57,787 bases of DNA from Candidatus Saganbacteria bacterium CG08_land_8_20_14_0_20_45_16 (GCA_002774365.1 PEYM01000120.1:1-57787), one strand, 5' to 3'; positions 2,803 to 56,487 are shown, counted from the first letter of the stretch. Notes: generated by a model not told the origin, from the letters alone. Numbers and translations: made by a program.

Positions 2803-2831
2803 GTGAAATTTTTCTCTCATTTAACAGATAA
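2803..2831 (+). promoter_or_regulatory. Sigma-28-like promoter motif, copy 1 (GTGAAATTT ... ACAGATAA)
   Basis: GTGAAA at 2803-2808, exactly 15 nt, then ACAGATAA at 2824-2831, 16 nt upstream of ATG 2848. This is the weakest -10 of the seven copies (CAGATAA rather than CCGATAA). Confidence 0.45.
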
Positions 2832-2847
2832 ATATTAGGAGTAAATC

Positions 2848-3555
2848 ATGTCAAATGTTTCTATTCCAGCATATAGACCAGATCCATTAAGTGGTAAAAC
2901 AATCAAGAATTACCGCGATCGTGTTCGACCAATTGTGAATGGCATTAGCAATGCCACCATTGCCATTAAAGCGGCTGTCAATAAAGGACGCATCTTACTT
3001 TGCCCCTGGTTTCATCGAAAAAAAATCTACTTACCAGTTGAAACCCTAAGAGATAGAGAGCAAACCATTGTCCTCTGCTTTCCAAAAAAAGAAGAGGTCT
3101 TTGCCGCAGTCTTTACTGAAAAGGCGTGGCGCGATCAGAAGGGAAAGCCAAGCGAAGTCTTTCTCGTCAGAAATTCAGAAAGGGAGGTCTTTCTTGAAGG
3201 CCAGCCTGTTGATAAAAATGAAACTAAAGTAGAAGCGCCTAATACTAAAGGAGAAACAGAGACCACTAGAAAACGACGCGAAGGAAAAGAAGCAGCAAAT
3301 TTTTGGCTGAGAATAAGAGATAATCTGCCCTCTTCTTTTTCAAGAAAAGTTAAGCCAGATGGGACAGTAAATCTTTGTAGTATTGCTGGAATTCAGCGTT
3401 CTTTCCCGATTGGGATTCAATATAAAGGCAAAACAGCTAATATTTCATTCTTAGAAAATGAAGAAATTAGAGTGGTCTCTTTCCAAGTTGAATTCTTAAC
3501 TGTTAGCTTTTGCCTTTTCAAGAACGGTGATTTTAGTGAGGAGCCAAGGATTTGA
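2848..3555 (+). CDS. Hypothetical protein (235 aa)
   Basis: ORF with AGGAG 8 nt upstream of the ATG. No recognisable motif. Preceded by the shared promoter motif. Confidence 0.6.
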   Translation: MSNVSIPAYRPDPLSGKTIKNYRDRVRPIVNGISNATIAIKAAVNKGRILLCPWFHRKKIYLPVETLRDREQTIVLCFPKKEEVFAAVFTEKAWRDQKGKPSEVFLVRNSEREVFLEGQPVDKNETKVEAPNTKGETETTRKRREGKEAANFWLRIRDNLPSSFSRKVKPDGTVNLCSIAGIQRSFPIGIQYKGKTANISFLENEEIRVVSFQVEFLTVSFCLFKNGDFSEEPRI

Positions 3556-3654
3556 CGTCTCCAGGTAAAATTTTTCTCCAGAGTGCCAGAAGAAAGTACA
3601 CAGTTCGAATTTAAACTAGCAGATGATCTTGTGCGAGAGGAAAACGAAAGCCCT

Positions 3655-4527
3655 CTACACAACAACTAAAATCTGCTTGTCTATAAAAGAAGCCAGCTTT
3701 AAATAGTCGGCCATCCCCTCAAAAACAGCCTCTTGAGGGATCATCCCCACAAGCTCTGACTCTAAAATCTCCACCTGGTACTCTTGTGCCCAGTTTTTGA
3801 CTTCAGCAAAAACCTTTTTTAGTGAGGTCATCCGGTGGTCGCAGAGATTGATTGAGACTTGAGTTATTCCTCGAGAAAGAAGCGAAATCCCCAAGGCCCT
3901 CACCCCTTTCAGCCCACCGCTCTTTTCCCTAATATTCTTGGCAATTGACTTGGCAATATCCAGATCTGTGGTCTTAAGATTAACATTAAACGCAATTAAA
4001 AAATCCCGCACCCCAACAGCCACCACCCCTGCTGAAAAATGAAGGTCATGGCCCACATCCGGCTGGCGCTCTGGTATATTGATCTCCTGGCACAAAAGGT
4101 GATACCCACCCCGCCTGACAAAAGGGAGCTCTTTTCGCTCTGGTTTTAACGCCGACTCTCCATAATAATAAACAGGCAAAGCTAATTTTTGCCAGAGCTC
4201 TTCCCCTAATTCGCGCACCAAACATAAGACTTCAGGCAGAGGACAGCTAACAGGAACAAACGGAATAACATCTACTACTCCAATATATGGATGCTCCCCC
4301 TCATGCTCCCTAATATTTAAAAGCTGCATCGCCCGCAAAGTTAGATCAAAAGCCGCTTGCTTAACTTCTTGAGGCCCGCCAACCATGGTAACAACTGTGC
4401 GGTTATGGTCTGGATCAGAGTGGACATTAAAAACTTTAGCAGTTTTAACAGCAGCAACAATCTCATCAACTAAGGCTAAGTCACGGCCTTCGGAAAAGTT
4501 CGGGACACACTCAACCAGCTTATTCAT
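3655..4527 (-). CDS. Glutamate formimidoyltransferase (FtcD N-terminal-type, standalone)
   Basis: The N-terminus [16 protein letters not shown] is the hallmark start of formiminotransferases, and the ~290 aa size fits. I prefer the second Met (4527, ATGAATAA overlapping the ftsH stop) over the longest ORF start at 4548. Confidence 0.85.
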   Translation of the reverse strand: MNKLVECVPNFSEGRDLALVDEIVAAVKTAKVFNVHSDPDHNRTVVTMVGGPQEVKQAAFDLTLRAMQLLNIREHEGEHPYIGVVDVIPFVPVSCPLPEVLCLVRELGEELWQKLALPVYYYGESALKPERKELPFVRRGGYHLLCQEINIPERQPDVGHDLHFSAGVVAVGVRDFLIAFNVNLKTTDLDIAKSIAKNIREKSGGLKGVRALGISLLSRGITQVSINLCDHRMTSLKKVFAEVKNWAQEYQVEILESELVGMIPQEAVFEGMADYLKLASFIDKQILVVV

Positions 4528-7263: not shown

Positions 7264-7656
7264 GTGGGTGACCTGTCACAAAATATCGGTAATATTGGTG
7301 GGGTTAGACCAACCCAGCGCTCAGAAGGTACCCAAGCTGGTGTCTACTTAAGCTCTGACCAAATCGAAGACTATAAAGCTAGAATCAGACAGGTCCAAAC
7401 CTCGCCAGCCGAAAGGTTCACAGAAATCCCAGCTACGTTAGGCCGGCTTAATCCAGACGCGGCCGCTCAAGACCCAACACCAATCAACCGGCAGATCATC
7501 CAAGAGGCAGCCCAAGCACCTGACCCAAGCAACAGCACGGCTGGCATTGAACAGCTAGCTGGCAATTTGCAAGTTATTTACGCACTGCTGCCACAGGCTC
7601 GGCCCCTGGCACGACAGGCTGCAGCAGAACAGCGCTTAGTAGGAGGCAAGGCATGA
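7264..7656 (+). CDS. Hypothetical protein (130 aa, GTG start)
   Basis: GTG one nt after the preceding TAA, with AAGGAG at 7250-7255. Low-complexity, Q/A/P-rich. Confidence 0.5.
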   Translation: MGDLSQNIGNIGGVRPTQRSEGTQAGVYLSSDQIEDYKARIRQVQTSPAERFTEIPATLGRLNPDAAAQDPTPINRQIIQEAAQAPDPSNSTAGIEQLAGNLQVIYALLPQARPLARQAAAEQRLVGGKA

Positions 7657-7979
7657 ACCCAGAAAAAAGCGCTTTAGAGCAATTAGAAGATATGCTTAAG
7701 GAATTTTGGCGGCAGCTGGCTAGGCCATCTATCATTGCCGCTCGCCACGCAGAATTTCTCATTGAGCCAAAGATCTTTATCGGCGATAAGCTCCATCCTG
7801 AGATCTTAAAGCTTTTGACCTTAAATTATTTGGCCAATACTTCACGCCAAGATTCTGGCACTGGCAATAACATTGAGGTTTCAACAGAAAAGATCGTGAT
7901 CAAAAATCAAAAGGGCAAACCAGTGGTCATTATCCGCGACCAAGAGATTGTCCAGCAATTCCTTGCTCAGCAAGCTTAA
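7653..7979 (+). CDS. Hypothetical protein (108 aa)
   Basis: ATGA start/stop overlap with the previous ORF (7653-7656). Its 3' end overlaps the mfd 3' end convergently by 50 nt. Confidence 0.5.
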   Translation: MNPEKSALEQLEDMLKEFWRQLARPSIIAARHAEFLIEPKIFIGDKLHPEILKLLTLNYLANTSRQDSGTGNNIEVSTEKIVIKNQKGKPVVIIRDQEIVQQFLAQQA

Positions 7980-10900
7980 GCTTATCGCAGCCTTTGATCT
8001 CTAACCGCCTCAGCCGACCATCAAAAAAAGCCACTATTAATTGATCGTTTTCCTCTTTGATGCTCTTAACCCCAGCTTGCAGCGCCTTGACCTTTAAGGA
8101 TAAGAGTTCAAATAACTTGGCCAGTTTAGCTGGGACAGGGCCAAAACGCTCAAGCAGCTCTTGCTTCATCTCCAAAAGCTCAGCTTGGCTCTGCAATAGG
8201 TTCATCCGACGGTAGACAGCAATCCGCTGTCGCTCGTCAACAATATAGGCTTCTGGAATAAACCCTTCGACTTTAAGGTCAAGCATTACCTCACGGGGAC
8301 TGACCGATTTTTGTCCCTTAACCTCGCGCACCGCCTGCTCCAGCAGTTCACAATAGAGGTCAAAACCAACTTCAAGAATGTGGCCTGACTGCTCTCGGCC
8401 TAAAAGATTGCCTGCACCCCTGATCTCTAGATCACGCATCGCCAATTTATAGCCAGAGCCCAAAGCTGTAAATTCAGTGATTGCTGCCAAACGCTGCTGA
8501 GCTTCGGTTGTCATAACCTGGTGTGGCTGATAAAACAAATAGGCGTAAGCCTTGACCGCAGACCGGCCCACCCTGCCCCTAATCTGGTAAAGCTGAGACA
8601 AACCAAAATGGTCAGCGTTATTGATCAAGATCGTATTAACGTTTTGGATATCAAGCCCAGATTCAATGATCGAGGTGCAGACCAAAACATCAAATTTGCG
8701 ATCAAGAAAATCGATCATGGTGTTTTCTAACTGACGCTCTGGCATTTGGCCATGGGCCACTGCTACCTTAGCCTCAGGCACTAATCTTTTGATCTTAGCC
8801 GCCGCCCCAACAATCGTTTTGACCACATTATGTAAAAAATAGATCTGCCCGCCGCGGTCAATCTCGCGCAAAATAGCTTCGCGGACCACGGCCTCGTTGT
8901 AAGGCAAAACATAAGTCCTAATCGGCGAGCGGTCAATGGGCGCGGTATTGATCACACTTAGGTCCCTTGCCCCGGCCAGGGACAGGTAAAGTGTCCGCGG
9001 GATCGGCGTAGCGCTTAAGGTCAGCACGTCAACATTTTGTTTTATTTTTTTTAGCCGCTCCTTGTCCCTGACCCCAAAGCGTTGCTCTTCATCAATGACC
9101 AGCAGTCCCAGATCGTGAAAGCGAACATCCTTGGACAACAAGCGATGGGTGCCAATCACAATATCAATTTTGGCCCGGGCCAGGTCCGCTACAGTTTGCG
9201 CCTGATCTTTTTTTAAGCGAAAACGAGACAGCATGGCAATGACAAACGGGGTTTCCTTAAAACGCTCTTTAAAATTATTATAATGCTGTTCAGCCAAGAT
9301 CGTGGTCGGCACCAAAATCACAACTTGTTTGCCTGCAGCCGCAGCTTTGGCCGCGGCTCGGACTGCGACCTCGGTCTTGCCATAGCCAACGTCACCACAA
9401 ACCAGGCGGTCCATGGGCCGTGACGCTGCCATATCTTCTTTGGTCGCAAGGATCGCTCTTTGCTGGTCAGGCGTTTCCTCAAAAGGAAAAGTGTCTGCCA
9501 GATCTTTTTGCCAAAGATCATCTCCCAAAAAACTAAAGCCTGGCAGTTTTTGGCGGTGGGCATAAAGGTGCAAGAGTTCGCTGGTCATGTCTGTGAGCGC
9601 TTTTTTTACCCGCGACTTGGTCTTTTCCCATTGACCGCTGCCTAACTTGGACAAGCGCGGGCTGGCGCCGCCAGCAGCGGAAAATTTCTCGACCATCCCG
9701 ACCATGCTCGGCGGCACATAAACCTTGGCCTTTTGCGCAAACTCTAAGACCAAATATTCACGCTCAATCCCTTCGATCGTCAAAAGCTCTAAGCCTTGAT
9801 AAAGCGCTACCCCATAATTTTCGTGCACCACATAATCACCTATTTTTAGCCGGGCCAACAACTCTTCAGCCACGCCTTCTTTAACCATAGGCCTGGCCCG
9901 ACGTGGCCGGCCGATTTCACCAAAAAGCTCGCGGTCAGACAAAAGCTCTAAGTCGGCTATTTGGCAACCGCCACGCAAATTCCCTTCAATTACAACCGCA
10001 CTAATTTCTTCGCGCAAGCGGGCCGCGTGCCGGCTGACCACAATTGTCTGATCAGATATATCAGTTAACTGCTGCCGGTAATCAAGCGGCTGGCTAAAGA
10101 GCACAGGAGTATCAGGCCCTAAAAAAGCAGATAATTCTAATTGTTTGAAAGGAGCAGCTAATTTTTTTATCTCTAAGAGATCAAGGTAGGCAAGCGGGCT
10201 GGGAAAAGTCTTGGCCCGAGCCAGCTCTCGTTTAACAAGCTGCTCAAGCTCAACAATATTATCAAAGGCCACCAAGGTTTGTTTAGAAAAATGTGCGAAA
10301 ACCGGCTTAGCAAACTCTTCACTAGCCGACACAACCACGGCTTCGGCTAACGAGCCCAACGAGCGCTGGTTATACGTTGCAAAACTGCGCAAACTGACCA
10401 AGAGATCATCAGCTAGCTCCAACCTAATTGGCTGCTTAAGGTTAACGGGAAAAATATCAACAAGTCCGCCCCTGACTGAAAACTCACCAGGCTCACCCAC
10501 AATGTCAAAGCGCTGGTAACCCAAATCAACCAAACGCATGATCAATTTATCTAAGGGTAAGCGCTGCTTAGAAACTAAGGACAGTGCCTCAATTGTTTGG
10601 CTAGTCTGCCACATTAACGCCTTGATCGGTGCCACGATTAGCAGCGGCGACTTTTTTTTGAGCTGCCAAAGCAAACCCAACCTTTCCCCAATTATCTCTC
10701 GGCTAACTAGCAAGCCCTCGCCTGGCAACATATCAGGAGCTGGAAAAAGCGCGACCTTGGCTCGGCTAAACAGCTCTAGCTCTTCTTTAACTGCCTCTGC
10801 CTTGGCTGTGGTGGCCACGACAATCAAAATTATAGGAAAATGAGCGTGGCAAGCTGTCAGCAGCAATGAGCTAGCTGCGCCTGGCAAACCAGCAAAAGCA

Positions 10901-11563: not shown

Positions 11564-12445
11564 CTATCTGCCGTAGGAAAATTCAATGCCAAAGCGAACA
11601 TCATGGGCGACTTCACTGATGGCTGCGGCTGGTTTATCCTTTAGGTAAGTCACGCCAAGTACCTCTGTAAACATTCTAAACTTATGAAAAAACTCAACTT
11701 CACTGGTGCGGCTGCGCCAGGGCTCAAAACGCACGCCCACGCCATAATCCGCAACATTCAAGAAAGAATAGCTCGCCCCGCTCTTGCCTGAATAAGTTAC
11801 ATCTGCCCTTAGGTACGGGGCAATCCCATCAGCCAGATAAATCCCAATCTTGGGCTGAAAGTAAACTACATAGTCCTTAAATTCTTCCCAGCCAAAATTT
11901 GTTTCTCGATAAGAAACAGTTGACCAAAGCTCGCCCCAAGGCTTTTGCCGGTCAGGCTTTTCTTGGTTCCACTCGTGCCAAATTTCCAGGCCATAGCGGG
12001 TATCTTCCTTGGCCAAAGTCTCGGCCGACGCGGCATTTTTTAAGTAGGAGGCAGAAAGCTTTTCAGCAAAGAGCTTGACCCCAGGCAGCCACTCGTTGGC
12101 CCAGTTGGTCGCTGGAAAATCGCGCAGCGGCATGACCCTTAGGCCATATCCAGAAAAAAGTGAATTGTCCCAATAATCATTTGATTGTGAGCCAACCCCA
12201 TAATACACACCATAAACCTGAAGCGGCGCACTCCCAACATTAAGACCAACTTTACCCTCAAAACGCGCCAGGCTAGAGGAAAAATTCTTGTTTTCCAAGT
12301 TGGTATCAAAGAAGGCCGCGTTATTCCACAGCTCAATAAAAAGAGCTGAGGGGACAAGCGTTTTAGGTTGACCGCTGTCCTGGGCCATGGCAAAGCCAGA
12401 CAAGAACATAGCCAGCAATAAACCTGACAATAAGATCTTTTTCAC
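11564..12445 (-). CDS. Secreted beta-rich protein, putative outer-membrane beta-barrel
   Basis: Signal peptide MKKILLSGLLLAMFLSGFAMA-QD. Aromatic/Gly-rich alternating pattern throughout, ending FGIEFSYGR. Function unknown. Confidence 0.55.
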   Translation of the reverse strand: MKKILLSGLLLAMFLSGFAMAQDSGQPKTLVPSALFIELWNNAAFFDTNLENKNFSSSLARFEGKVGLNVGSAPLQVYGVYYGVGSQSNDYWDNSLFSGYGLRVMPLRDFPATNWANEWLPGVKLFAEKLSASYLKNAASAETLAKEDTRYGLEIWHEWNQEKPDRQKPWGELWSTVSYRETNFGWEEFKDYVVYFQPKIGIYLADGIAPYLRADVTYSGKSGASYSFLNVADYGVGVRFEPWRSRTSEVEFFHKFRMFTEVLGVTYLKDKPAAAISEVAHDVRFGIEFSYGR

Positions 12446-12476
12446 TTATTCACCTTTAAGCCTATTAAGCCTTGGT

Positions 12477-13226: not shown

Positions 13227-13275
13227 ATTAACGCACCCCTTTCAATATATCTTTCGCTAGCTTTATAAAGAAATT

Positions 13276-19351: not shown

Positions 19352-19380
19352 GTGAAATTTTGCCAGGAAGTTAACGATAT
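19352..19380 (+). promoter_or_regulatory. Sigma-28-like promoter motif, copy 2 (upstream of gene A)
   Basis: GTGAAA 19352-19357, 15 nt, AACGATAT 19373-19380, followed by ATAT. 24 nt upstream of ATG 19405. Confidence 0.6.
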
Positions 19381-19404
19381 ATATGTAGAAAGGAGCTAAA
19401 ACTT

Positions 19405-39087: not shown

Positions 39088-39113
39088 ATATATAGGAGAG
39101 AGAGAGGGGGCCC

Positions 39114-39141
39114 GATGTCCTAGGTCCCAAGTCCTATGTCA
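39114..39141 (+). repeat. Four phased heptamers (GATGTCC TAGGTCC CAAGTCC TATGTCA) in the 5' leader of gene F
   Basis: Read directly. Same NNNGTCC family as 27224-27237 and the minus strand of 14935-14997. Confidence 0.65.
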
Positions 39142-39155
39142 TTGGGAGCAAAGAA

Positions 39156-44963: not shown

Positions 44964-44978
44964 AGGGAGTGAATTACA

Positions 44979-47900
44979 ATGAGCGAACCAGGCATCTTTA
45001 TACCAAGTAGTTATTCAAGGTTTTCATTTTCTCCTTCTCAAGAAGAAGCCGCTCCTGAAACAAGCAGGTTTACAGGGAGTAATTTCTATGCTGACGCCAG
45101 TGAAGTGCCTAGCGCCATCTCCATCGATGCAATTAGTCCAGTAGACTTAACTACTTTATGTAGCAATGATATCCCTTGCAGCTTATTTGCTAGAAATCCT
45201 TTTGCTTGGGATATCTTTAGTCAATTTTTGTCTTTCTTGACCAGCGAAAGCGAGGACATTAGACATGATGTTTGGAATGCACGCGGTGTTATAGGAATGC
45301 TAAACCGACGTGTTCATGATGCCCAGTTAAGAGATGAGATCGTTGGTGTTCAAGATACTCCCGATCAGGCAGAATCAGCTGGAGAGTTCGAAACACAAGC
45401 TGAAAGCACCGAAAGAGATAATCAAAGTCAATTAGCTGAAGCAACTATTCTCTCTTGGATTTTTGCTCGCAACCTAGGACATCAGCGGCCTGGTTTTACT
45501 TTGGGGAGAGTTTCAAGAAGTAGTATAATTGCAATTTTTGGAACAGAAGATAATTCTTGGGAACAATTTTTCGAAGACCCGACCCAAAACACTCTGACTT
45601 TTAAAGCTGATATTGAAGATGCTATCAGAACTCAAATAACAGATACCGACAAGCGCGAAAGATTGCTCACTCTTTTCCAAAACACTCATCCAACAGACTA
45701 CGATCCTCTTATTTTGGCCATTAGAAGCTTGCGCGTTCGGCCAGGCAGCAACCAATGGATCTCTTGGCGCCGTGAATACTGGGAACCACAACTGGCTTTG
45801 ATCTTATGCAGTGAACTTGACGACCCTATGCTGCGCAACAATTTTCTTTATTTGGTCCGCAATCATCCCAACCTGCACACCCGGGCCAGCCTGGCCAACC
45901 AACCATTCCTAGAGGACCGGCCGCTATTGCATGGCGTGCTAGTCCATGAAGATGGCAGCGATATAACCTGGTCAGGAACAGACTGGGCCAACAGGGTTCA
46001 AGCCAGATGGGCAGAGATCAGGGCTCGTGAATTTATTAATGACCTCTTTTTGGGCAGCGGCGATGTGACCCATGAAGGAGTTACCCGTCATCCTTTTTCT
46101 TTTTTGGAAAGCGGCAACTTTTTTAGTCTGGCCCTGCTCTACAAGAGCCTGGGCCGAACAGACACCTATCTCAGCCTGCTTTCTCGCGGCAGATTGGTCA
46201 TTGAGGGGCGTCTGGCACCACGGGCCAATAACGATGGCTCACTCGCAGACCTACCAGAAGCAGACCGGACCTTCTATGTGCCAAACCTAACCTCCCGCAG
46301 CGGCGGCCGAGAGGTCAGCCGTATGCAAGCCATGGCCAATGTGCAGATGAGCAATCTTTTAGAAATGCAGGCCAATGAACTAGACGAAGCAATTGCCCGC
46401 TTGCAAAGGACGCTAACAGAAGCTGGCGAAGACAATCTTTCTAGCCAAGGACACGCCGCGATTAGCAGTATTCTAACCATCTTCCGCGGTCGGCCAGGCA
46501 ACAATGACAGCGGGCTTGGCTTAAACCAACAACACCTAACCCTCTCTGATCTGGAACCAATTGTTAGAGCAAGGTTTCCAGGGGCTGAGAATGAAAGGCT
46601 GTCAGCAAGCAGAAGAAACGCTATTTTAACCCAGCGTCGTGACGAGCGGGGAAGGATTTGGCAAGCGCTAGTAGACGCTCATTTTATTAATACCGATGGT
46701 TTGATCCTTTCTCGCGATTTTGCGCAATTAAGGTCGCAGCTTTCTGGCAATCGCCTGAGAGTTTCTATTGACGACATCATTAGCCTATTACAGCAGGTTC
46801 CTGAACGACTGGAATATCATTTTGTTGACCATTTAACCAGCCTGGACCCAGCAGCCAATACTTTAACCAGAGAACAGCTTGAACAATTGCTAAATGAAGC
46901 CCACGCGGTTCAGGATTTCTTGATCCAAAGCGCTATGTCATATCGTTGCTTTGCTTCTCATGTTCCGTTTGCCAGGGCTGACAATGAAGATGATGTGGCA
47001 CTACACACTATTGATCAACTTGAGGTCAGAAACGGCATAGCCAATGAAGAGATCAGGCGCGGCTTCAGGCTAAAAGACGCGCACAATCCTTGCTATCTTA
47101 CAACCCTACGCGAAGGGGCAATGCATCTTGAAGAGGTCATACACATGGGCGAGCAATACGAAGCTTATGCCGCAACCCTATCTCCTCACGGAGTTGCACC
47201 AAGGCAACTGCGTCAGATATTAACTTTTGCCACCATTGCCCGGGCCAAGCTCAATATGGCCTTGCTCGGTGAAATAGACCAACAAGTAGACCCGATCGTG
47301 CTAACTATATTAGAGCCAGCCATTTTGCAATTGACAAACGGCCAACAAATATTTGATCGGCTCAATTCAACAACAGGTATCACCAGAGAAGATGCTCTAG
47401 AAGTCCAAGCACAGCTTCTTACCCAAGCCGCTGAGCAGCTAGCAGCAGCCGGAGCAGCAAGGTACACTTATCCGTACCGGACAAATACTATTACCCCAGC
47501 TATGTTTGATAATCTACAACAACCAGGGCCAGCCCCCACCAGACGTGGCCAAACACAAAGAGCTCCCCTGCCAATTTCCACTGCGGAACTGCTTACTCTC
47601 CTGGAAACAACAGGCTACATCAATGAGCAAAGAGAGGTGCAGCCCGCTATCTCTGATTTCACTGAATTTGCAGAAACCTTGCAAGCTCAAAACTCAGGGC
47701 TATCACAAGCTCAATTACGCGCTATTCATCTGATATTAAAAAACGCTCCCCGCACAGATCACGAATACACCATCAACCTTATCCGCGACCAGCAGTTAAC
47801 AGATGTCCAGCTGGCCCAGGCTGAAAACCTGGCCCGCCGGGCTTTTCTAGCCCAGGACCTTGGCAACATTGAAGGGGAAGAAGGCCACGAGGGCTCGCGC

Positions 47901-50900
47901 GCCCTTGCCAACCAAGCCAAGGATATTTTAAGACAGCTCCTAAACAGAAACAACTTGGTCAATCTCACCCCCATGACCCTGGCCTTGGCAAACTTTTGGC
48001 TGGGTAAGATCTACGCGATTGAGGCCAGCAATGCAAATTCAATCGAAGAGACAGAACATATCCTTGATCAGGCTGACGAATATATTAGGCAGGCGCTTGA
48101 CGCCAATATTTTACAAGGCTCACTGCTTTCTTCAGCTTATCAAACTAGGGGAGAGATCCATCTTTTTAGACGCCATCTCAGTGAAGCCAGCGAAGATTTT
48201 GCCCGGGCCATCAGTCTTAACTCAGAAAACTTTGAGGCGCGGGTTAATCTGGCCGATATCCATAATCAGCAAGGTGATTACGCCAGAGCAATTACCGAGT
48301 ATCAAGAACTGGTGGCCCGCTTTGACCCCTCGCTACCGACTGCCACGACTTTCAGTGGCCACTTGCTCCTAACCAGAAGCAGGCTCGGCCTTTTAGAAGC
48401 ACAAATGCGACAGCACGGAGCTTACACTGACGCAAGCATTGCAGCCTTAGAAGAATTTATCTTTGGCGCTAACGAGCAGGAAGGTATTTTTCACACTGAG
48501 CCGCGCGGCTCATTTGTTGTTAGGCGGGCCATTGACGCTTTGCTTGAGGCTTATTCAGCCAATGAAGATTATCACGCTAGCATTGTTTCTTTAACTCATC
48601 TGCTGTTAACAGAAGACCAGGCTGGCACCAATCCCAGGATCCTATCTGATCTTGATCTGCTTTTTGTCAGGAATAGGCAGCAAAGAGCCCAAGTCTTAGA
48701 AGCGCTCATAGCTGGCCACTTGCTTAACAACGATAATTCGGTTGCGGCTGATTTTGACCTGACAGATTCTGCCAGGGCCAGCTTTGTGGCAAGTTTTGGA
48801 CCTGATATCAATGGTTTAACTACTGAACAAAAAGGTCAAGTCTTTGACTTGCTGCGCCTAGCAGCCAGGCTGCGCCAAGACCAAAATTACATTAATGAGC
48901 AGACAGTGGCGCTCAGGGGACGGGTCACCCCCAATACCCACTCGCATTTCCCGCAACGCTACCGCGCCCACCTTTATCTAAAAATGATCGAGGCTACCTC
49001 CTGGGACCGCAGCCAGGGCATTAGCGAAAGGTTTGATCGGGCCAGGACATTATTAGACAATATTCCAGATGACTTGAGCAGGATTATTGAGGCTGATCGC
49101 GAACTTAAGGCAGAACTTGCTTTACTAGACGCCGAGGTCCAAATGCGGCAGCGAGCAGTCTCTGGCCGGCATCAGCGCCAACGCGCCCAGGAACCGGTGT
49201 TTACGGCTGAATTAAACACCATAGTCACACGCAGCCAGGACCCTAACCTTACCTCTCGTCTCTTGCGCGATCAGCTCGAAGGCCTGGCTTACTCCAAACA
49301 CTTTAGAGCAGCCGCTGACCTGGCCGCGCAATATCAGGCACCAAGCGAAGACGCCCCAGCGCTTACACCAGCTCAACAAACCGCTCGCGAACTTTTTGTC
49401 GCCACTCAAAATCGTTTTGAGGAAAGAGGTTTGCCGCTGGCTTACCAACGCTTTGATTTTGAAATGAGAATGCAGCAAGTCGATGCCTTGACCTATCACA
49501 TCTCTGACAGAGAAAGATTAAGGCCTGATTACACTGAACCGCTGGGAGTTCTAGCCCAGATTATTGCTGATTCAGGCCAGCTAGAACACAATACTCCTAC
49601 CTTGGCCACCTTTTATCAAGCAGCTAGGGCCAGGGCTTTCCAGCGCCGCGGTGATCTTTTCCGTTATCACTGGCGCGGCAGGAGCTTTGAACAAGCGCTT
49701 AGCAATTATGGCGCCTCGATCAGGACAGTTAACAGCCTGCCAGCTCGGCCACGAGCCACTGCCATTGACCGGACCAGGAGTTTTTTGGGATTGGCTGAAA
49801 CCTATGCTGACCCCAATACTGCCAGAGAGGTTCCGGCCCTGACCCGCGAAGAATCCCTGCGTTTAGCCAGCTCCAACTACGAGCTCGCCATGGCAGAGAC
49901 CCTAACCCTCCCCTACTTTAGCGAGAACCGCGACTTCTTGCTGGTCCAGGTCAACCGCAGCCGCAGCCAATTTGAAGAGCGGGGCGGCAACATGGAAGAC
50001 GCGATTTATTATCTCCAGGCAGCTCAGCACGGACTAGAGCTGGTCAACGGCCTGGACGACGAGTTCTTAGCCGGGATGGACGATGCTTACCGTCGCTACG
50101 CTAGACTGCGCGGGATAACAACAGAAGTCAACTGGAACTCATATTCTGGCTTTCCGCAAGACGGTGACACGGTGCGCGAAAATCAGCTTACCCTGGAAAT
50201 GGGCCTGTCCCCTGGCTGGATCAACAGCCGCACCGGTCAGCGGATCTATGAACGCTTTTTACTTAGCGGTCAGGCTGATTTCTACGGCGGCGACACAACC
50301 TCTCAAACACTTTACGGCGGAATGGAGTTAGCTGGCCGCACCCCAGAGCTAGCCTGGTCAACCAGGGCCATGGTCATGCTCTACTCGCACACCGAGGGTG
50401 ATGGCGTGGCTAATTTCTTGCGGCGGCCAAATGCCAGGATGAACGCCTATCTTTGGCACGACAGTTTTACTCTTTCCGCCGCGCTTGACCTCAATACCCA
50501 ACAGCCTGAATACACTAGTGCGTTTGTCAGGGCCATGTACAACTCCCCTGATACCCTGAGCCGCCGGCCCTGGATTCCCACCCGGCTTTTTAATAATTTC
50601 CAGGCTGGTGGAGAATACCTCACTTACATTTTTAACTTTAGCGGCAACAGCCACCGCATTCATGCCTTTGGCTTGCGCGGCGATTGGCAGGTTAATTTAA
50701 ATCGGGCCACCCTGCGCACCGCCATCTCGCTCCGGTTGCTTTATGATTCATATGTCGGCGACCAACACCAAAGTGGCCGGCAGCTTGAGCAGAGTGCCTG
50801 GGACGTAGCCTTGATCGGCGAATTAGGCATTGACATAAATATCAACCGCAATTTTGTCCTCACGGCTCAATGTGAGGTCCAGGGCCAATCAGGCTTTGCC

Positions 50901-51047
50901 AGTCTGCACTGCGGGATTGGTTTTAGGTTCCCGTACTTGTTTGATAATTCCCGGGCTGGGCACGGAGCACACAATAATCACAGCGCAGAATTGAATGAGG
51001 ACGAAGTACTCCACGAGCTTCCATTACTTGACGATGGAGAAAATTAG
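44979..51047 (+). CDS. Giant-cluster protein G (2022 aa), helical/TPR region plus C-terminal beta-barrel-like domain
   Basis: AGGGAG upstream, 15-nt gap after F. TPR-like repeats at aa ~1000-1118 (..AYQTRGEIHLFRRHLSEASEDFARAISLNSENFEARVNLADIHNQQGDYARAITEYQELV..). The last ~300 aa alternate hydrophobic/polar residues and include ..GIGFRF. Confidence 0.8.
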   Translation: MSEPGIFIPSSYSRFSFSPSQEEAAPETSRFTGSNFYADASEVPSAISIDAISPVDLTTLCSNDIPCSLFARNPFAWDIFSQFLSFLTSESEDIRHDVWNARGVIGMLNRRVHDAQLRDEIVGVQDTPDQAESAGEFETQAESTERDNQSQLAEATILSWIFARNLGHQRPGFTLGRVSRSSIIAIFGTEDNSWEQFFEDPTQNTLTFKADIEDAIRTQITDTDKRERLLTLFQNTHPTDYDPLILAIRSLRVRPGSNQWISWRREYWEPQLALILCSELDDPMLRNNFLYLVRNHPNLHTRASLANQPFLEDRPLLHGVLVHEDGSDITWSGTDWANRVQARWAEIRAREFINDLFLGSGDVTHEGVTRHPFSFLESGNFFSLALLYKSLGRTDTYLSLLSRGRLVIEGRLAPRANNDGSLADLPEADRTFYVPNLTSRSGGREVSRMQAMANVQMSNLLEMQANELDEAIARLQRTLTEAGEDNLSSQGHAAISSILTIFRGRPGNNDSGLGLNQQHLTLSDLEPIVRARFPGAENERLSASRRNAILTQRRDERGRIWQALVDAHFINTDGLILSRDFAQLRSQLSGNRLRVSIDDIISLLQQVPERLEYHFVDHLTSLDPAANTLTREQLEQLLNEAHAVQDFLIQSAMSYRCFASHVPFARADNEDDVALHTIDQLEVRNGIANEEIRRGFRLKDAHNPCYLTTLREGAMHLEEVIHMGEQYEAYAATLSPHGVAPRQLRQILTFATIARAKLNMALLGEIDQQVDPIVLTILEPAILQLTNGQQIFDRLNSTTGITREDALEVQAQLLTQAAEQLAAAGAARYTYPYRTNTITPAMFDNLQQPGPAPTRRGQTQRAPLPISTAELLTLLETTGYINEQREVQPAISDFTEFAETLQAQNSGLSQAQLRAIHLILKNAPRTDHEYTINLIRDQQLTDVQLAQAENLARRAFLAQDLGNIEGEEGHEGSRALANQAKDILRQLLNRNNLVNLTPMTLALANFWLGKIYAIEASNANSIEETEHILDQADEYIRQALDANILQGSLLSSAYQTRGEIHLFRRHLSEASEDFARAISLNSENFEARVNLADIHNQQGDYARAITEYQELVARFDPSLPTATTFSGHLLLTRSRLGLLEAQMRQHGAYTDASIAALEEFIFGANEQEGIFHTEPRGSFVVRRAIDALLEAYSANEDYHASIVSLTHLLLTEDQAGTNPRILSDLDLLFVRNRQQRAQVLEALIAGHLLNNDNSVAADFDLTDSARASFVASFGPDINGLTTEQKGQVFDLLRLAARLRQDQNYINEQTVALRGRVTPNTHSHFPQRYRAHLYLKMIEATSWDRSQGISERFDRARTLLDNIPDDLSRIIEADRELKAELALLDAEVQMRQRAVSGRHQRQRAQEPVFTAELNTIVTRSQDPNLTSRLLRDQLEGLAYSKHFRAAADLAAQYQAPSEDAPALTPAQQTARELFVATQNRFEERGLPLAYQRFDFEMRMQQVDALTYHISDRERLRPDYTEPLGVLAQIIADSGQLEHNTPTLATFYQAARARAFQRRGDLFRYHWRGRSFEQALSNYGASIRTVNSLPARPRATAIDRTRSFLGLAETYADPNTAREVPALTREESLRLASSNYELAMAETLTLPYFSENRDFLLVQVNRSRSQFEERGGNMEDAIYYLQAAQHGLELVNGLDDEFLAGMDDAYRRYARLRGITTEVNWNSYSGFPQDGDTVRENQLTLEMGLSPGWINSRTGQRIYERFLLSGQADFYGGDTTSQTLYGGMELAGRTPELAWSTRAMVMLYSHTEGDGVANFLRRPNARMNAYLWHDSFTLSAALDLNTQQPEYTSAFVRAMYNSPDTLSRRPWIPTRLFNNFQAGGEYLTYIFNFSGNSHRIHAFGLRGDWQVNLNRATLRTAISLRLLYDSYVGDQHQSGRQLEQSAWDVALIGELGIDININRNFVLTAQCEVQGQSGFASLHCGIGFRFPYLFDNSRAGHGAHNNHSAELNEDEVLHELPLLDDGEN

Positions 51048-51076
51048 GTGAAATTTTTTAAAAAAGCTGACGATAT
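51048..51076 (+). promoter_or_regulatory. Sigma-28-like promoter motif, copy 5 (upstream of gene H)
   Basis: GTGAAA 51048-51053 immediately after the TAG of G, 15 nt, GACGATAT 51069-51076, then ATATAT. 21 nt upstream of ATG 51098. Confidence 0.6.
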
Positions 51077-51097
51077 ATATATGAGAAGGGGACGAAA

Positions 51098-53872
51098 ATG
51101 TTTTCAAGAATAGGGTCTTATCTTTCACAATATTTTTCTTGGGTGCCTGGCTTATCAACTCTTAGCTGCGCACCTAATGATGGCGAGCAGGTCTGTATTG
51201 CCCCAGAGCCGCATCTGCCTCACCTTTCCCGAGATGAAACTGGTATGGTTTGCGGCAATGATGAGATCACCGAAGCTATCCAACCAGGTGATTTTCCCGT
51301 TTCACTTCACTGCGAGAGCAATGACGGTATTGGCGCAGCCAATTGCCTCGGTGGCAATGATGCTGATAGAATCAACAGGGACTCACTGCAAATTACCTGT
51401 CTAAACAACGGAGAAGAATTCTCCCCAAGTCTTAACCCAGACGGCACAATGGATGTTGAGCTCTTCGAGCAGCCTTTAGGTGAGATTGGCTGTTATGTTT
51501 CACAATACTATGACCGCAATGCTAACGAAGTTAAAACAATTGGCTCTTACGCAGAAGCGTTGTACTTGGACCAAGAACGAAAGTCCAACTACCAAGACCC
51601 GGCTTTTACTTTCTGGTTAACAATGAACGGCATCAGCTATGAACCTAATTACCGTGAGATCCCTGATTTTGGCACCATTGACCCCAGACCACAAGCAGCC
51701 ATGTCTCGTGGCTCTGACAACATCTACAACTGGCAAATTGACAATTTAACTGACGATTTTGGCAATCGGCTCCATTTAATTGACAGCAATGCAAACTATT
51801 TCCTTAATAACAACGAAAATTTTTCGAGCGGTTATACAGAAAGAAACACTTACCGCATTCAAGGGCAAATGCTGCCTAATGCCGGACCAGGAACATTCTA
51901 CGCTATTTTTAGTGATGACTACGGCCACACACGCCGGGTCACTTTTTATCAGCCAACCATTACACCACTGGAGTTTAACAGTAATGATATTTCCTGGTAC
52001 ACCGTCAACCCAGAAAGCCCTTACTGGATTTGTATAAACCCGGGCCTGCCTGTTTCTGGCGCTACCAACTACTTGTTTTCTGCCACCTTTACCGACCCTA
52101 CAACCAATGAAACCGCTCCCCCCTATGCCATAGCCAGTCAACCAAGTAACTGCATTGCCTTTAGCCCCACCCGCTTAGGCGACTATTCCCTGCAAGCAGA
52201 AATTACTACCTATAGCGGAGACATCTTAAATGCTAGAACGACTGATACAATTACAGCGCATGAAAACGGCACAGCCGTGCTCATGGGCTCAATGCTAGGC
52301 GTACACACCGCTCACATCGGCGATGATGTTGTGCTGATGGGCAATTCCAGCGACCCAGACGCAACTTATGATTGGGAAATTTTACCGCCTCGTGGCGATG
52401 TCATGAGCTTTAACGGACAAACCGCCAGCTTTACAGCAGAATTAGAGGGCGATTATGATGTTAGACTAGTCATTACTTCTAGCGACGGCCGCACCCAAAA
52501 AGTTATTTCTCGAGATATTGAAGTTTATCCGCCTTACACAATTATTCCTTCAGCCACAATAAGCCGCGAACTCACCTACTCTTATCATCTTGGTGACACG
52601 GCAAGAGATATCATTTGCCGCTCTGATGATCCGGCCGCCACCTTTGCTTGGACTGTTACCAGACCAGCTCCAAATGAGCACGGCGAGGTCATAGAAAGAT
52701 TTGCTGGCCCAGTCATTCGCTCATATACTTTTGACAGTATTGGGGATTTTGATTTTAGATGCACGGTCGTTGCTAGTGACAGCATAACAACCAGTGGTGA
52801 AAGCCGTTCAGTCAATGTTTATCCATCAAATGTTGAGCTACCGCTGGCTGGGATGGCGGCCTCGTTTGCCGCGGAAGTAGGCACAGACGTTGTTTTTGCA
52901 ACCCCAAGCCCTGATACTTCAAGGTATAGCTACACTTGGGAGTTTGTTGATGACGGCTCAACAGAAACCGGCACAGAAGTTACGCATAATTTTGCTGAAA
53001 CAGGGACCTACATGGTCAGGCTAACAGTTGCTTCCCTGGCAGACCCAACACTTAAAAATTCAGTTGTTCAAACTATTACTATTGTTCCGATTGGTGTTGA
53101 GATCCCAACTTTGTCAATCGTGGGGCTGCCAGCTGTTCACGAAGACACTCCCTTTACCTTAAGTGTAGCCGACCCTGACACAGACAATTTTGTCTACACA
53201 TGGGAAATTGCTGGCGAGCCAACCCCTGTCACTGGAGCCAGCATTACCCACACCTTTAATAACCCTGGTCAATACGGAGTAGTCTTGCGCGCCACCAGCA
53301 GGCGAGATTCTAGCGTCTCTTTTGTCACCCCAGCATATTATATTTATGTAATCCAAAACAGCATTCCTTTACCTAACTTATCAATCATTGCGCCATTCTC
53401 TGGCCAAGTTAGTACCGCTACTACAACAAACAATATTAGGTTTAGGGCCTCTGACCCCAGCCCAGAATATAATTACTCCTTTGATTTTGTTGGCAGTGCC
53501 AGCGCTATGGGTTCTGACGTTACCCACGCCTTTAATGAACTTGGGACCTACAGTGTCATCTTAACCGCAACACTAAGATCGGATCCATCAGTAACTTATC
53601 AGATCACTCATAACATAACTATTGTGCCTTATCATGTACCAAATGTTGGCATTGAAGGCCCGCTCTCTGCGCCAGTTAACACAGCAGTAAGCTATAATGT
53701 TCCTGAACCAACACCAGGCGCGACTTACACCTGGCATTTTGGCGACGGGACAACGGCCACAGGGACTTCGGTCTCCCATACTTATCGCTCTATTGCTGAT
53801 TTTCAGGTTAGATTAACCGCCGATAACCACGGCACAACCAACGAAATCCGACATAATATTACGATCTATTAA
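51098..53872 (+). CDS. Giant-cluster protein H (924 aa), Cys-rich N-terminal region plus six tandem PKD/Ig-like repeats
   Basis: Repeats of ~88 aa from aa ~393 to the end, with PKD-like signatures. Examples are YSYTWEFVDDGSTETGTEVTHNFAETGTYMVRLTV, FVYTWEIAGEPTPVTGASITHTFNNPGQYGVVLRA and ATYTWHFGDGTTATGTSVSHTYRSIADFQVRLTA. Confidence 0.8.
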   Translation: MFSRIGSYLSQYFSWVPGLSTLSCAPNDGEQVCIAPEPHLPHLSRDETGMVCGNDEITEAIQPGDFPVSLHCESNDGIGAANCLGGNDADRINRDSLQITCLNNGEEFSPSLNPDGTMDVELFEQPLGEIGCYVSQYYDRNANEVKTIGSYAEALYLDQERKSNYQDPAFTFWLTMNGISYEPNYREIPDFGTIDPRPQAAMSRGSDNIYNWQIDNLTDDFGNRLHLIDSNANYFLNNNENFSSGYTERNTYRIQGQMLPNAGPGTFYAIFSDDYGHTRRVTFYQPTITPLEFNSNDISWYTVNPESPYWICINPGLPVSGATNYLFSATFTDPTTNETAPPYAIASQPSNCIAFSPTRLGDYSLQAEITTYSGDILNARTTDTITAHENGTAVLMGSMLGVHTAHIGDDVVLMGNSSDPDATYDWEILPPRGDVMSFNGQTASFTAELEGDYDVRLVITSSDGRTQKVISRDIEVYPPYTIIPSATISRELTYSYHLGDTARDIICRSDDPAATFAWTVTRPAPNEHGEVIERFAGPVIRSYTFDSIGDFDFRCTVVASDSITTSGESRSVNVYPSNVELPLAGMAASFAAEVGTDVVFATPSPDTSRYSYTWEFVDDGSTETGTEVTHNFAETGTYMVRLTVASLADPTLKNSVVQTITIVPIGVEIPTLSIVGLPAVHEDTPFTLSVADPDTDNFVYTWEIAGEPTPVTGASITHTFNNPGQYGVVLRATSRRDSSVSFVTPAYYIYVIQNSIPLPNLSIIAPFSGQVSTATTTNNIRFRASDPSPEYNYSFDFVGSASAMGSDVTHAFNELGTYSVILTATLRSDPSVTYQITHNITIVPYHVPNVGIEGPLSAPVNTAVSYNVPEPTPGATYTWHFGDGTTATGTSVSHTYRSIADFQVRLTADNHGTTNEIRHNITIY

Positions 53873-54216
53873 GGACAAAATACAAAGTAATCATTTGGAG
53901 AAAAAAAATAATGGAAGCTGGCAACAAGATTAATGCCTTCACCCCCACCCTGAGCCAGGAAACAAATAGCTCAAAGCTGACGAACTCCTCAAAAAACTAA
54001 ACCACTGAATTATTTTTCGCTTAAAAAAGCCCTCTTGCTAAAACAGGGTGGAGCTTGGCCAATTTGCTTCTCTGGCTGACATTCCCTTTCCAAAACTCTC
54101 CAATTTCGTAAAAACGCAAAAAATCACAACAAACCCAAAAAGGCATTTTTCATCCCGCTTTACCGACGACAAACAAAAAATCGCAATTACTTTCAATTTC
54201 TCAGTCAGCCCAAAAA

Positions 54217-54245
54217 CTGAAATTTTCTCCACATCCTAACGATAT
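54217..54245 (+). promoter_or_regulatory. Sigma-28-like promoter motif, copy 6 (upstream of gene I)
   Basis: CTGAAA 54217-54222, 15 nt, AACGATAT 54238-54245. Only 11 nt upstream of ATG 54257, with no SD. Confidence 0.55.
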
Positions 54246-54256
54246 AGCTATAACCT

Positions 54257-56326
54257 ATGCTAAGATCAACTTTTACTAGCAGGCTCAATAATAATCAATG
54301 GTACCAAGCTTTAATCGGCCGGGAGCTAAGAGATAACATTAAGACTTGGTTGAATAAACCCCACCCCCCCCTTGGCCATACATTTGCCTTTCCTGGCCTA
54401 GCATCTGGTATTGATCCCACTCGAATTAAAAGGGTTTCGGTCACAGAAGTCAGGGCCTGGCGGATGAGCGGCACTGGAACAACCAGCACTACTGGCACAC
54501 CCCCTAATTCCCCACCCCCAGCACCCAGTCCCACCCCAAAAACCACGTTAATCCAAAAAATCTTTCGCAATTGGATGACCAAGCTCGCTTCAATGGCTGC
54601 TTCAGCCTACACAATTTATTACTTAGCCTGGAATTTGCCGCTCAAAAACGGGATTACCCTGATTGATCTGGTTTTTACTGATTGGCATTCTCAACATAGT
54701 TTAAAAAACGAAGGCCGCATCATTGCCGGGGTCACAACTTTAATCCTTTTTCTCCCACTCGGTTCAATTCTCTATCTCTTAGTCCAATTAGCCAAAAAGG
54801 TCCCTAGCCTCGCTAAAAAAATTGCCTCAATTTCACAAAATAAAGAGCTGGCAACAACAAGGCGAGAACTTACTCTTGCCAACCAAGATCTAGCAGCCGA
54901 GCAAAGGAAATTTCAGGAAAAAACTGATGAAGTAGAAAAATTGACGCAACAAATTGAGAAAATTAGAAAAGTATCAAAGAAAACACTTGACGAATTACAA
55001 AATAAATATAATCCAGCCACTAATAAATATAATCTAACCACTAATAAAATAAAAACCTTAACGCAAGCCCTTAAAACTGCTGCCGAAGAAAAAGCCTTAA
55101 GAGAGAAAGCTGAGGCAAACCCAAGAGAAGAAGAGACTCGAACCCAGGGAGCAGCAGACAAAAGAGAGCTTGCCCAATTAAAACCAAGATTAGAAAGAGC
55201 AGAAAAAAGAGTTGAAGATCTTGAGGGGGAGAGTAACTCTCTTATAAAATTAGGGGATGCCAATCGAAGATTAGATGAAGAGCTTGATGCAGAAAGAGAA
55301 AAAGTCAACCAAGCAATTGCTTCCCGCAAACAAGCAGAAGCAGCCAAATTAGCTGCCGAAAACGTTGCTAGCCAAGAGCGCGACACAGCACACCAAGCAA
55401 TCATCGCCCAACAAAAAGCCGAAGGCAATCTCGAGAGAAGAACAGAAGAGGTAACTACCTTAAGGCGAAAGCTTGAGGCTGCCCTGTCACTGCTTAGACA
55501 ATCAGAAGAAACTCTTGAAGGATTAGAGCTTGATCTTGAAAGAAAACAACAAACTGAAGCAGAACATTTAGATGTGTCTGCCGAGCTTGATAATTTTGAG
55601 CAAAGAATAGATGGACTTATCACAGACAAAAAGCAAGCTGGGCACGAGGCCAAAAAACTCGAAGCCCGCGCCATTAGTGCAGAAGCTGGGCTTGAAGATC
55701 TACGAGTCCAGGTAAAAGAGTTAAAGGGCTTAAAAGATGTCAAACTTGCTCAAGGAAGAATTGAGGAACATAGAGAAGAAGCAGAGAGACAAAAAAGACG
55801 AGCTGATGGCTTGGAAGATAGAGCCAAAAGAGCCGAAGATCAAGCTCAAGCAGCAGAAAAAACAGCTGAAGCAGCCAACAGAGAAAGAGATGAGCTCAAA
55901 AGAAATCTTGAAAGGCTCACAGCTAATCACCGAGAGCTTGAACAAGCTCTCGAGGCTGAAAGAGAGCAAGTCAGGGAAGCTGCCAAAGGGACCGAAGCTG
56001 CATTTGCCAGTATCCGGCAAGAGCTTGAAGAAAAAAAATCGAAAGCCAATCTTCTACAGCAACGGCTTGATGATGCTACTGCAAAAAGTGCCAGGGAGTT
56101 GCAAGAGGTAAGGGACGAACTCAACAACACAACAACAAAAGCTACAAAAGTATGGAATGATCTTACGGCTCTTCGCCAAGAGACAGGACCATTGAAAACA
56201 GCCAACCAAGAAATGACCAGGCGCCTAAATAAGCTTGAGGGAGAAAACGCTAACTCGAAAAAACAAAAAGATTTTTACTTCGAGCAGGTTAAGAATCTAG
56301 AAGAAGAAGTTAAGCGTCTGAAATAG
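54257..56326 (+). CDS. Giant-cluster protein I (689 aa): conserved N-domain, Pro/Thr linker, two TM helices, ~480-aa coiled coil
   Basis: N-domain ..PPLGHTFAFPGLASGIDPTRIKRVSVTEVRAWRMSG. Linker TPPNSPPPAPSPTPK. TMs LASMAASAYTIYYLAWNL and IIAGVTTLILFLPLGSILYLLVQLA. The rest is E/K/A/L/Q/R-rich heptad-like sequence. Confidence 0.8.
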   Translation: MLRSTFTSRLNNNQWYQALIGRELRDNIKTWLNKPHPPLGHTFAFPGLASGIDPTRIKRVSVTEVRAWRMSGTGTTSTTGTPPNSPPPAPSPTPKTTLIQKIFRNWMTKLASMAASAYTIYYLAWNLPLKNGITLIDLVFTDWHSQHSLKNEGRIIAGVTTLILFLPLGSILYLLVQLAKKVPSLAKKIASISQNKELATTRRELTLANQDLAAEQRKFQEKTDEVEKLTQQIEKIRKVSKKTLDELQNKYNPATNKYNLTTNKIKTLTQALKTAAEEKALREKAEANPREEETRTQGAADKRELAQLKPRLERAEKRVEDLEGESNSLIKLGDANRRLDEELDAEREKVNQAIASRKQAEAAKLAAENVASQERDTAHQAIIAQQKAEGNLERRTEEVTTLRRKLEAALSLLRQSEETLEGLELDLERKQQTEAEHLDVSAELDNFEQRIDGLITDKKQAGHEAKKLEARAISAEAGLEDLRVQVKELKGLKDVKLAQGRIEEHREEAERQKRRADGLEDRAKRAEDQAQAAEKTAEAANRERDELKRNLERLTANHRELEQALEAEREQVREAAKGTEAAFASIRQELEEKKSKANLLQQRLDDATAKSARELQEVRDELNNTTTKATKVWNDLTALRQETGPLKTANQEMTRRLNKLEGENANSKKQKDFYFEQVKNLEEEVKRLK

Positions 56327-56358
56327 ACAGTAGAAAGGCCAACAATTATTTTTTTTAA

Positions 56359-56436
56359 CTCACCCCCGGATTCTCTAAGTTATCCACCCCTCGCCCACTG
56401 GGAGAGGGGGCTAAATTTTAGAATGTCTGGGGTGAG
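56359..56436 (+). repeat. Hairpin-containing interspersed repeat, copy B (MITE-like; possible terminator for gene I)
   Basis: Terminal inverted repeats CTCACCCC (56359-66) and GGGGTGAG (56429-36). Inner hairpin CCCCTCGCCC-ACT-GGGAGAGGGG (56387-56409) followed by GCTAAATTTTA. Related to 6364-6420 in inverted orientation. Confidence 0.55.
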
Positions 56437-56458
56437 GGCTAAAATAGTTGCCATAACA

Positions 56459-56487
56459 GTGAAATTTTCTGCAAACCAAGCCGATAA
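56459..56487 (+). promoter_or_regulatory. Sigma-28-like promoter motif, copy 7 (upstream of gene J)
   Basis: GTGAAA 56459-56464, 15 nt, GCCGATAA 56480-56487 (a perfect consensus -10), then ATATAT. 18 nt upstream of GTG 56506. Confidence 0.6.

Follow-up and report, generated by a model that had tools for sequence, protein, structure and literature searches.

We analysed a stretch of 57,787 nucleotides (nt) of Candidatus Saganbacteria bacterium CG08_land_8_20_14_0_20_45_16 (GCA_002774365.1, PEYM01000120.1:1-57787), referred to here as the window, in which a bipartite, promoter-like motif, TGAAAT followed at a fixed distance by CGATAT, lies ahead of a series of giant genes. The window is a piece of bacterial chromosome and is known only from metagenome assemblies. 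The best named matches of its valyl-tRNA synthetase (ValRS) were all from candidate division WOR-1, Candidatus Saganbacteria or Margulisiibacteriota, at 60-71% identity, and on these matches the window belongs to the WOR-1/Saganbacteria-Margulisiibacteriota lineage. The minus strand carries ordinary genes, namely valS, an FTCD-like gene, ftsH, mazG, mfd, pth, GH26/CBM9 genes and genes for ABC permeases. The giant block on the plus strand is essentially without Pfam domains, except PKD, TPR and coiled coil. Domain scans detected no flagellar domain in any window protein, as an earlier note on this DNA had said of flagellar genes, and Rfam gave no match in the window. The giant block is made up of the following units (protein lengths in amino acids, aa):

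19405-27221, plus strand: unit 1, genes of 1127, 1370 and 99 aa, tightly coupled, without Pfam domains
28605-39058, plus strand: unit 2, two 1388-aa genes and a 704-aa gene, without Pfam domains
39156-51047, plus strand: unit 3, a 1935-aa gene and a 2022-aa gene (one TPR stretch)
51098-57787, plus strand: units 4-6 (51098-53872, 54257-56326 and 56506 to the end), a 924-aa PKD protein, a 689-aa coiled-coil protein and a coiled-coil protein of more than 427 aa, with one motif site each

The giants are not paralogues of one another, except at the N-termini of the last two genes, where that of the gene from 56506 is 41% identical to that of 54257-56326. A full HMMER scan of 1.84 billion representative proteins found only 11 relatives of the 1127-aa giant, and a word-indexed search with a 1388-aa giant returned that protein alone.

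The earlier note had described seven copies of a sigma-28-type promoter as defining a regulon of giant genes. The coordinates and sequences of the seven sites were all correctly listed. Six of them are strong, but the site at 2803 is weaker, with its -10 shifted by one base, as could be seen in that listing itself. We found one further candidate on the minus strand, which the note did not include, and a weak second candidate in a gap that already holds a strong site. The sites, with the putative -35 and -10 elements, are:

19352-19383, plus strand: putative promoter site, -35 TGAAAT at 19353, -10 CGATAT at 19375-19380, heading unit 19405-27221
28528-28559, plus strand: putative promoter site, -10 CGATAT at 28551-28556, heading unit 28605-39058
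39059-39090, plus strand: putative promoter site, -10 at 39082-39087, heading unit 39156-51047
51048-51079, plus strand: putative promoter site, -10 at 51071-51076, heading the PKD-domain gene 51098-53872
54217-54248, plus strand: putative promoter site, -10 at 54240-54245 (CGATATAGCT), heading the coiled-coil gene 54257-56326
56459-56490, plus strand: putative promoter site, -10 CGATAA at 56482-56487, heading the GTG-start gene at 56506, which runs off the window
2803-2834, plus strand: weak variant site, perfect GTGAAATTT, -10 shifted by one base (CAGATAAATAT), heading the hypothetical gene 2848-3555, which is divergent from valS
13248-13279, minus strand: extra candidate site, GTGAAATTT-N14-CGAAAGATAT, 20-30 bits
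19236-19267, plus strand: weak second candidate in the same gap as site 19352, GTGAAATTT-N14-CGAAAAAAAG

The six strong sites have an exact CGATA, whereas the three weak ones have the -10 variants CGAAA and AGATA. Site 2803 reads C-A-GATAAATAT at its -10, by a one-base insertion or shift, and scores 16 bits in a position weight matrix (PWM) built without it. The minus-strand candidate (13279-13248) is found 21 nt upstream of a gene for a secreted 249-aa protein (13226-12477). Sites 39059 and 51048 each begin on the first base past the stop codon of the preceding gene, which for the latter is 44979-51047. Transcription from site 19352 is predicted to start at ~19388, and the leader predicted for site 54217 is only ~4 nt long.

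TGAAA-N17-CGATA has six exact matches on the plus strand of the window and none on the minus strand, where 100 dinucleotide shuffles gave an expected count of 0.11 ± 0.35 and a maximum of 2. When the window was scanned with a PWM, the six sites stood apart from everything else at 42-49 bits. All sites fall in intergenic DNA, which makes up 3.8% (2180 nt) of the window, and they occupy eight of the 14 intergenic gaps longer than 30 nt; the random occurrence in coding sequence that the note had named as a result that would speak against its proposal was not seen. At the seven sites listed originally, the 8-mer lies 16, 24, 48, 68, 21, 11 and 18 nt from the start codon, exactly the previously reported span of 11-68 nt. 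Every one of the six giant-block units has one site at its head, co-oriented with the next gene, and the junctions within units, which are 1-19 nt long or overlapping, contain no site. This mapping bears out the statement that six sites open units and that none lies between coupled genes. Pairwise identity between sites is 0.70 in a 33-nt core and 0.28-0.30 in the 60-nt flanks, and as the flank identity is at background level, duplication of a segment does not account for the sites. Sigma-70-like matches in 38800-57787 were at chance level (23 found, 24.9 expected), with none in the gaps heading units 3-5 and two weak 9-of-12 matches in the 56327-56505 gap. The housekeeping pattern TTGACA-N16-18-TATAAT does not describe the motif either; with TTGAAA taken as the -35, the best TATATA is 20 nt away.

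An exact 18-base search (TGAAATTT-N13/14-CGATATATAT) of Joint Genome Institute (JGI) metagenome contigs found at least 120 loci. Among the matches listed, 106 unique sites had N14 and 15 had N13, and for 80 of the 106 N14 sites the next 300 nt of the same strand held both a Shine-Dalgarno sequence and a start codon (median distance 38 nt). Non-seeded occurrences of GAAATT-N-CGATA in these loci, which give a test of spacing independent of the search pattern, numbered 34 at N14, with 0-3 for any of the other spacings between 9 and 20. Additional PWM sites were found at ~5 per 100 kb in the lineage loci; 369 kb of unrelated genomes contained none, and neither did shuffles. Scanning of genome contigs at N13 revealed promoter-like sites in Saganbacteria, WOR-1 and Margulisiibacteriota metagenome-assembled genomes, and the proteins on these contigs shared 46-65% identity with proteins on the metagenome loci. 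Use of the motif extends across the lineage, with a single, rigid spacing. A logo of 105 sites showed, outside the bases of the search pattern, an A-rich upstream stretch, AAA in the spacer and a purine-rich stretch directly after ATAT. The three positions -16 to -14 read T-G-A, with T at 79%, G at 57% and A at 50%, respectively, and C at only 16% at -14.

Most of the 62 downstream proteins that were scanned had no Pfam domain. The remaining matches were scattered, and included kinases, HEAT, SLH, GGDEF, pentapeptide, subtilase and others. The units of the giant block do carry sites, but the regulon is not specific to giants: throughout the lineage it comprises genes that for the most part lack domains, and the giant block forms one dense patch within it.

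The consensus for sigma-28 promoters is (-36)TCTAAAG(-30) with (-15)GCCGATAA(-8), equivalent to TAAA-N15-GCCGATAA (PMC12784957), and the form given in the earlier note was correct. The motif matches this consensus at five of the five positions of CGATA and has the same N15 between xAAA and the 8-mer. The FliA promoters of Escherichia coli and Pseudomonas aeruginosa (TAAAGTTT-N11-GCCGATAA, PMC12784957) share with it the bipartite build, the xAAA-to-8-mer distance and the CGATA core. The differences are that the -35 is (G/C)TGAAAT rather than TCTAAAG, that T-G-A is preferred at -16 to -14 and the GC extended -10 is missing, and that ATAT is conserved after the -10. A further difference lies in the genes controlled, which are ORFans rather than flagellin, che or mot genes.

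Two sigma factor genes were found in the motif loci using phmmer with E. coli FliA, one in locus L075 and one in L091. The L075 sigma (236 aa, 7621-8331) had TIGR02479 (FliA_WhiG) as its best NCBIfam match, extending over model positions 2-224 of 224. Its PDB matches ranked WhiG (6pfj) first, then FliA (6pmi, 9wsf, 1rp3), at least 15 bits above any SigA or RpoS. The gene heads flgB-flgC-fliE-fliF-fliG-fliH-fliI and, like FliA, belongs to a flagellar setting, here among basal-body genes. In all, 414 homologues were found; the best 120 of these are 65-97% identical, and some homologues bear the name sigma-28 SigD/FliA/WhiG (Saganbacteria) or are placed in WOR-1 or Margulisiibacteriota. In all four family members examined for genomic context, the sigma gene was in the same flagellar cluster, in the order fliK-like, flhB-CTD-like (C-terminal domain), flgF, flgG, flgA, flgH, flgI, flgJ-N-like, sigma, flgB, flgC, fliE, fliF, short fliG, fliH, fliI, fliJ. 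The small gene before the sigma gene was considered as a possible flgM and rejected, as its product resembles the rod-binding N-terminal domain of FlgJ, and no anti-sigma factor was identified. The L091 sigma (203 aa) is a distant FliA-like protein without region 3, encoded downstream of flhA. A motif site precedes the three-gene operon that ends in this sigma gene, and five sites are present on that 10.5-kb locus. Of the fliA/sigD/whiG and flgM homologues that the earlier note had suggested looking for, FliA/WhiG-family sigmas were recovered at the level of the lineage, and no flgM turned up among 62 proteins scanned downstream of sites.

The residues that contact the promoter are known for P. 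aeruginosa FliA, where the contacts that read the DNA are Y76 with -11A, R80 with -12G, D87 with -13C/-12G, R97 with the GC extended -10 and Q228 with -36/-35 (PMC12784957). The readers of -13C, -12G and -11A are conserved in the lineage sigma, in that Y70, R74 and D81 (E. coli numbering, corresponding to P. aeruginosa Y76, R80 and D87) are invariant in 120 members of the family. The equivalent of the extended -10 arginine, R91 (P. aeruginosa R97), is invariantly Y in the 120, and ESRVSQ is invariantly RPKVCR, such that the -35 glutamine (P. aeruginosa Q228) is replaced by R. The L091 sigma also has R at this position. Sigma and motif depart from the canonical pair in matching places, because the CGA readers and CGATA are both kept, and the readers of the GC and of the -35 have changed together with the bases that they read. 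From this specific correspondence we infer that the DNA-reading residues of the lineage sigma co-vary with the motif.

Taken together, the motif is probably a variant of the sigma-28-type promoter, most likely read by the FliA/WhiG-family sigma of the lineage and controlling a large, non-flagellar regulon of ORFans. The preference in the earlier note for sigma-28 over sigma-70 gains support from the CGATA core and the spacing, the presence of a FliA/WhiG sigma in the lineage, its co-varying residues and the chance level of sigma-70 matches. According to this reading, aAAAA(G/C)TGAAATTT(C/T)-N13-CGATAT-ATAT would be a bipartite promoter, with TGAAAT as the -35 element and CGATAT, aligned to the Pseudomonas fliC promoter, as the -10 element at -13 to -8. 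Transcription would start in the purine-rich Shine-Dalgarno stretch, ~8 nt after CGATAT. The motif would be recognised by the FliA/WhiG sigma encoded between flgI-flgJ and flgB-flgC in the conserved basal-body cluster, and would drive each of the six giant-block units independently, together with the hypothetical gene at 2848 and probably the minus-strand unit at 13226. Across the lineage, the same promoter would head mainly lineage-specific genes without known domains, at ~5 sites per 100 kb. The genome from which the window derives presumably carries the sigma gene, given its distribution among relatives.

Several observations weigh against this reading. The motif is not a member of the canonical sigma-28 promoter class, as the extended -10 is missing and no late flagellar target was found. 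In the -35, AAA is kept but G stands in place of T relative to TAAA, and there is no GC at -15/-14. The 62 downstream proteins that were scanned included no product of a flagellin, chemotaxis, motor or flgM gene, and phmmer detected no flagellin in ~750 kb of motif loci. The missing late flagellar genes count here because a canonical sigma-28 regulon would include such genes. The regulon is estimated, by extrapolation from loci chosen for carrying a site, at ~100 sites per 2 Mb, which is large for sigma-28. The L075 sigma scores 133.6 bits, below the TIGR02479 cut-off of 189.6, and in the Saganbacteria clusters no motif site is found within 10 kb of the sigma gene. The sigma gene is known at lineage level and was not located in the window's own genome. 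Finally, the motif also resembles, in box positions and spacing, the pattern tGAAACnTTTt ... CGTA of sigma-W (PMC5758882), a sigma factor of the extracytoplasmic function (ECF, group 4) type.

If this resemblance reflected the true identity of the motif, the sites would be ECF promoters like those of Bacillus subtilis sigma-W, with CGTA ~16 nt after the -35, and the regulon would be of an envelope or stress type. The TGAAA-type -35, the T-tract after it and a CG-initiated -10 ~16 nt downstream (TGAAAT-N16-CGAT) are indeed common to the motif and to sigma-W and sigma-V promoters (PMC5758882), and ECF regulons often include envelope and hypothetical proteins. However, the diagnostic AAC is AAT in six of the six window sites, and with this T fixed in the lineage search more than 100 sites were nevertheless recovered. 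The diagnostic CGT is CGA, and CGATA agrees with sigma-28 at all five positions. Searches with SigW and RpoE using phmmer found no ECF-type sigma in ~925 kb of lineage DNA, whereas FliA-like sigmas turned up. No site lies ahead of an ECF-type sigma/anti-sigma pair; the sole sigma operon with a site is the FliA-like one adjoining flhA. We therefore regard an ECF promoter as unlikely.

It is less likely again that the motif is simply the strong housekeeping promoter of the lineage, read by the primary sigma and marking no special regulon. The frequency of sites, ~5 per 100 kb, would suit this explanation, as would the likeness of the ATATAT after the -10 to a TATAAT-like stretch, and the promoter consensus of candidate phyla is not established. 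Yet valS, ftsH, mfd, recA, rny, mreB and rplY lack the motif in the window and the syntenic loci. In the syntenic WOR-1 locus L192, where recA, rny, ftsH, valS and mfd are without it, all three sites precede domain-less hypothetical genes. A TTGAAA-N20-TATATA reading would also need an impossible spacer, and primary-sigma promoters are not characterised by an invariant CGA at -13 to -11. The very high conservation of the sites is more typical of operators or repeats than of promoters, and could indicate a transcription factor binding site or a small repeated or mobile DNA element. Such an element would hardly be asymmetric and bipartite, with its blocks separated by 14 nt and no other spacing allowed, nor fixed in orientation with a start codon near, and the sites have flanks at background identity, no terminal repeats and a position upstream of unrelated genes in many genomes. 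This is the least probable of the explanations considered.

A sigma-28-type promoter controlling genes other than those of motility has parallels elsewhere. The SigD promoters of B. subtilis, TAAA-N15-GCCGATAT, have a -10 that ends in T, like the CGATAT of the motif, and the SigD regulon reaches beyond flagella to autolysins. SigD still controls hag, mot and che, and sigD is at the end of the fla/che operon, whereas the genes found behind the motif here include no late flagellar gene. The closest parallels are the sigma-28 of Chlamydia, which has a non-flagellar regulon of late genes (PMC12282069), and Streptomyces WhiG, which has a non-flagellar regulon in sporulation (PMC12871210), as in both a FliA/WhiG-family sigma acts on non-motility genes in the way proposed here. 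WhiG is also the best PDB match of the lineage sigma. These bacteria differ in having no flagellar genes and small regulons, whereas in the present lineage the sigma is encoded in a basal-body cluster and the regulon is apparently large.

We found no description of promoters or sigma regulons of this lineage in the literature, and the transcription signals of uncultivated phyla are almost undescribed. The motif is an easily searched 18-base signature that would mark transcription units and, by extension, co-regulated genes, in both genomes and metagenomes of Saganbacteria/Margulisbacteria. It would bring together dozens of 'dark matter' genes, giant ORFans included, in one regulon tied to a flagellar-type sigma, which leads to testable hypotheses on the timing of expression and the function of these genes. 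The parallel changes, loss of the extended -10 with R to Y and change of the -35 with Q to R, may represent a natural specificity-switch experiment for sigma-28.

The flagellar apparatus of the lineage may be reduced. None of the sampled loci showed a hook, filament, motor or chemotaxis gene, and no flagellar genes beyond those of L075 and L091 were found in the motif loci. In the flagellar clusters of Saganbacteria, FliG has just 165-172 aa (L182:13226-13723, L185:12363-12863 and L075:4462-4980 on the minus strand), and consists of the N domain and part of the M domain without the C-terminal torque domain. It is conceivable, though doubtful, that the clusters encode a non-rotating, flagellum-derived basal body and type III export machine, and that the embedded sigma-28 variant was re-purposed for ~100 ORFans, giants included. 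If so, some ORFans could be export substrates or surface structures of this machine, and the flagellum of a free-living candidate phylum would have given rise to a regulatory and secretory module. A depletion of N-terminal signal peptides among regulon proteins, which would hint at type III export, was not seen (15% versus 18% in controls, p = 0.70). In L075, two plus-strand ORFan genes (365 and 206 aa; 636-2473) are inserted between fliI and fliJ in the orientation opposite to that of the flagellar cluster, with motif sites of their own at 659 and 1817. One protein of more than 420 aa downstream of the motif has a Sigma70_r4 match.

Small protein families of 63-99 aa recur directly behind the motif on different contigs (L095, L114, L133 and L067; L138 and L159; L117, L180 and L064; L076 and L108). 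They include a 63-aa family ending YF and a 72-76-aa family ending GRT(V/I)D(A/T)VV, and had no Pfam or NCBIfam match. A conserved RNA of ~70 nt (AUAGAAGGGAACCAUACCUUU...) is found behind the motif at L081:945, L093:846, L107:4835, L141:1676 and L156:578, the last three on the minus strand. It contains no open reading frame, ends in a GC hairpin and U-tract and is not found in the window; it is a candidate small RNA of the regulon. Rfam gave no match for the small RNAs or leaders behind the motif. Three to four tandem ATCAGR repeats precede the Shine-Dalgarno sequence in seven of 108 motif-driven leaders (L064, L111, L113, L123, L130, L170, L180), and the 61-nt leader of site 39059 in the window (39095-39155) contains three GTCCYA repeats. 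These leader repeats may be sites for an RNA-binding regulator, perhaps CsrA-like.

The slot between valS and the FTCD-like gene, which holds weak site 2803, is occupied in four related genomes by hypothetical genes that differ from one genome to the next and are not homologous (window 2770-3654; L191:3028-4000; L192:9136-10000; L179:4483-5195), and looks like a hot spot for ORFan turnover. The slot gene has a motif-like site in three of the four (window, L191 and L192). As the slot genes in L191 and L192 are non-homologous, the likeness of their sites to 2803 is one of position and not orthology. A perfect site in L179 was considered as an orthologue of site 2803 and rejected, as the L179 slot holds another gene and the site is elsewhere.

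Two adjacent overlapping genes of unit 2 (28605-32771 and 32765-36931) both encode proteins of exactly 1388 aa with ~5 predicted membrane segments each, and show no mutual BLASTP similarity at E < 1e-3. The giant block is broken on the opposite strand by an AAA_14/DUF4143 ATPase gene (27284-28411, minus strand). Copies of this family, at L192:1-368 and 12995-14146, flank the syntenic valS region in WOR-1 RIFOXYB2_FULL_42_35. Upstream of pth and mfd in the window (11564-13226, minus strand), the gene for the 249-aa protein is followed by one for a 293-aa putative outer-membrane beta-barrel protein, and homologues of the secreted 249-aa protein recur beside motif sites in L070, L123 and L125.

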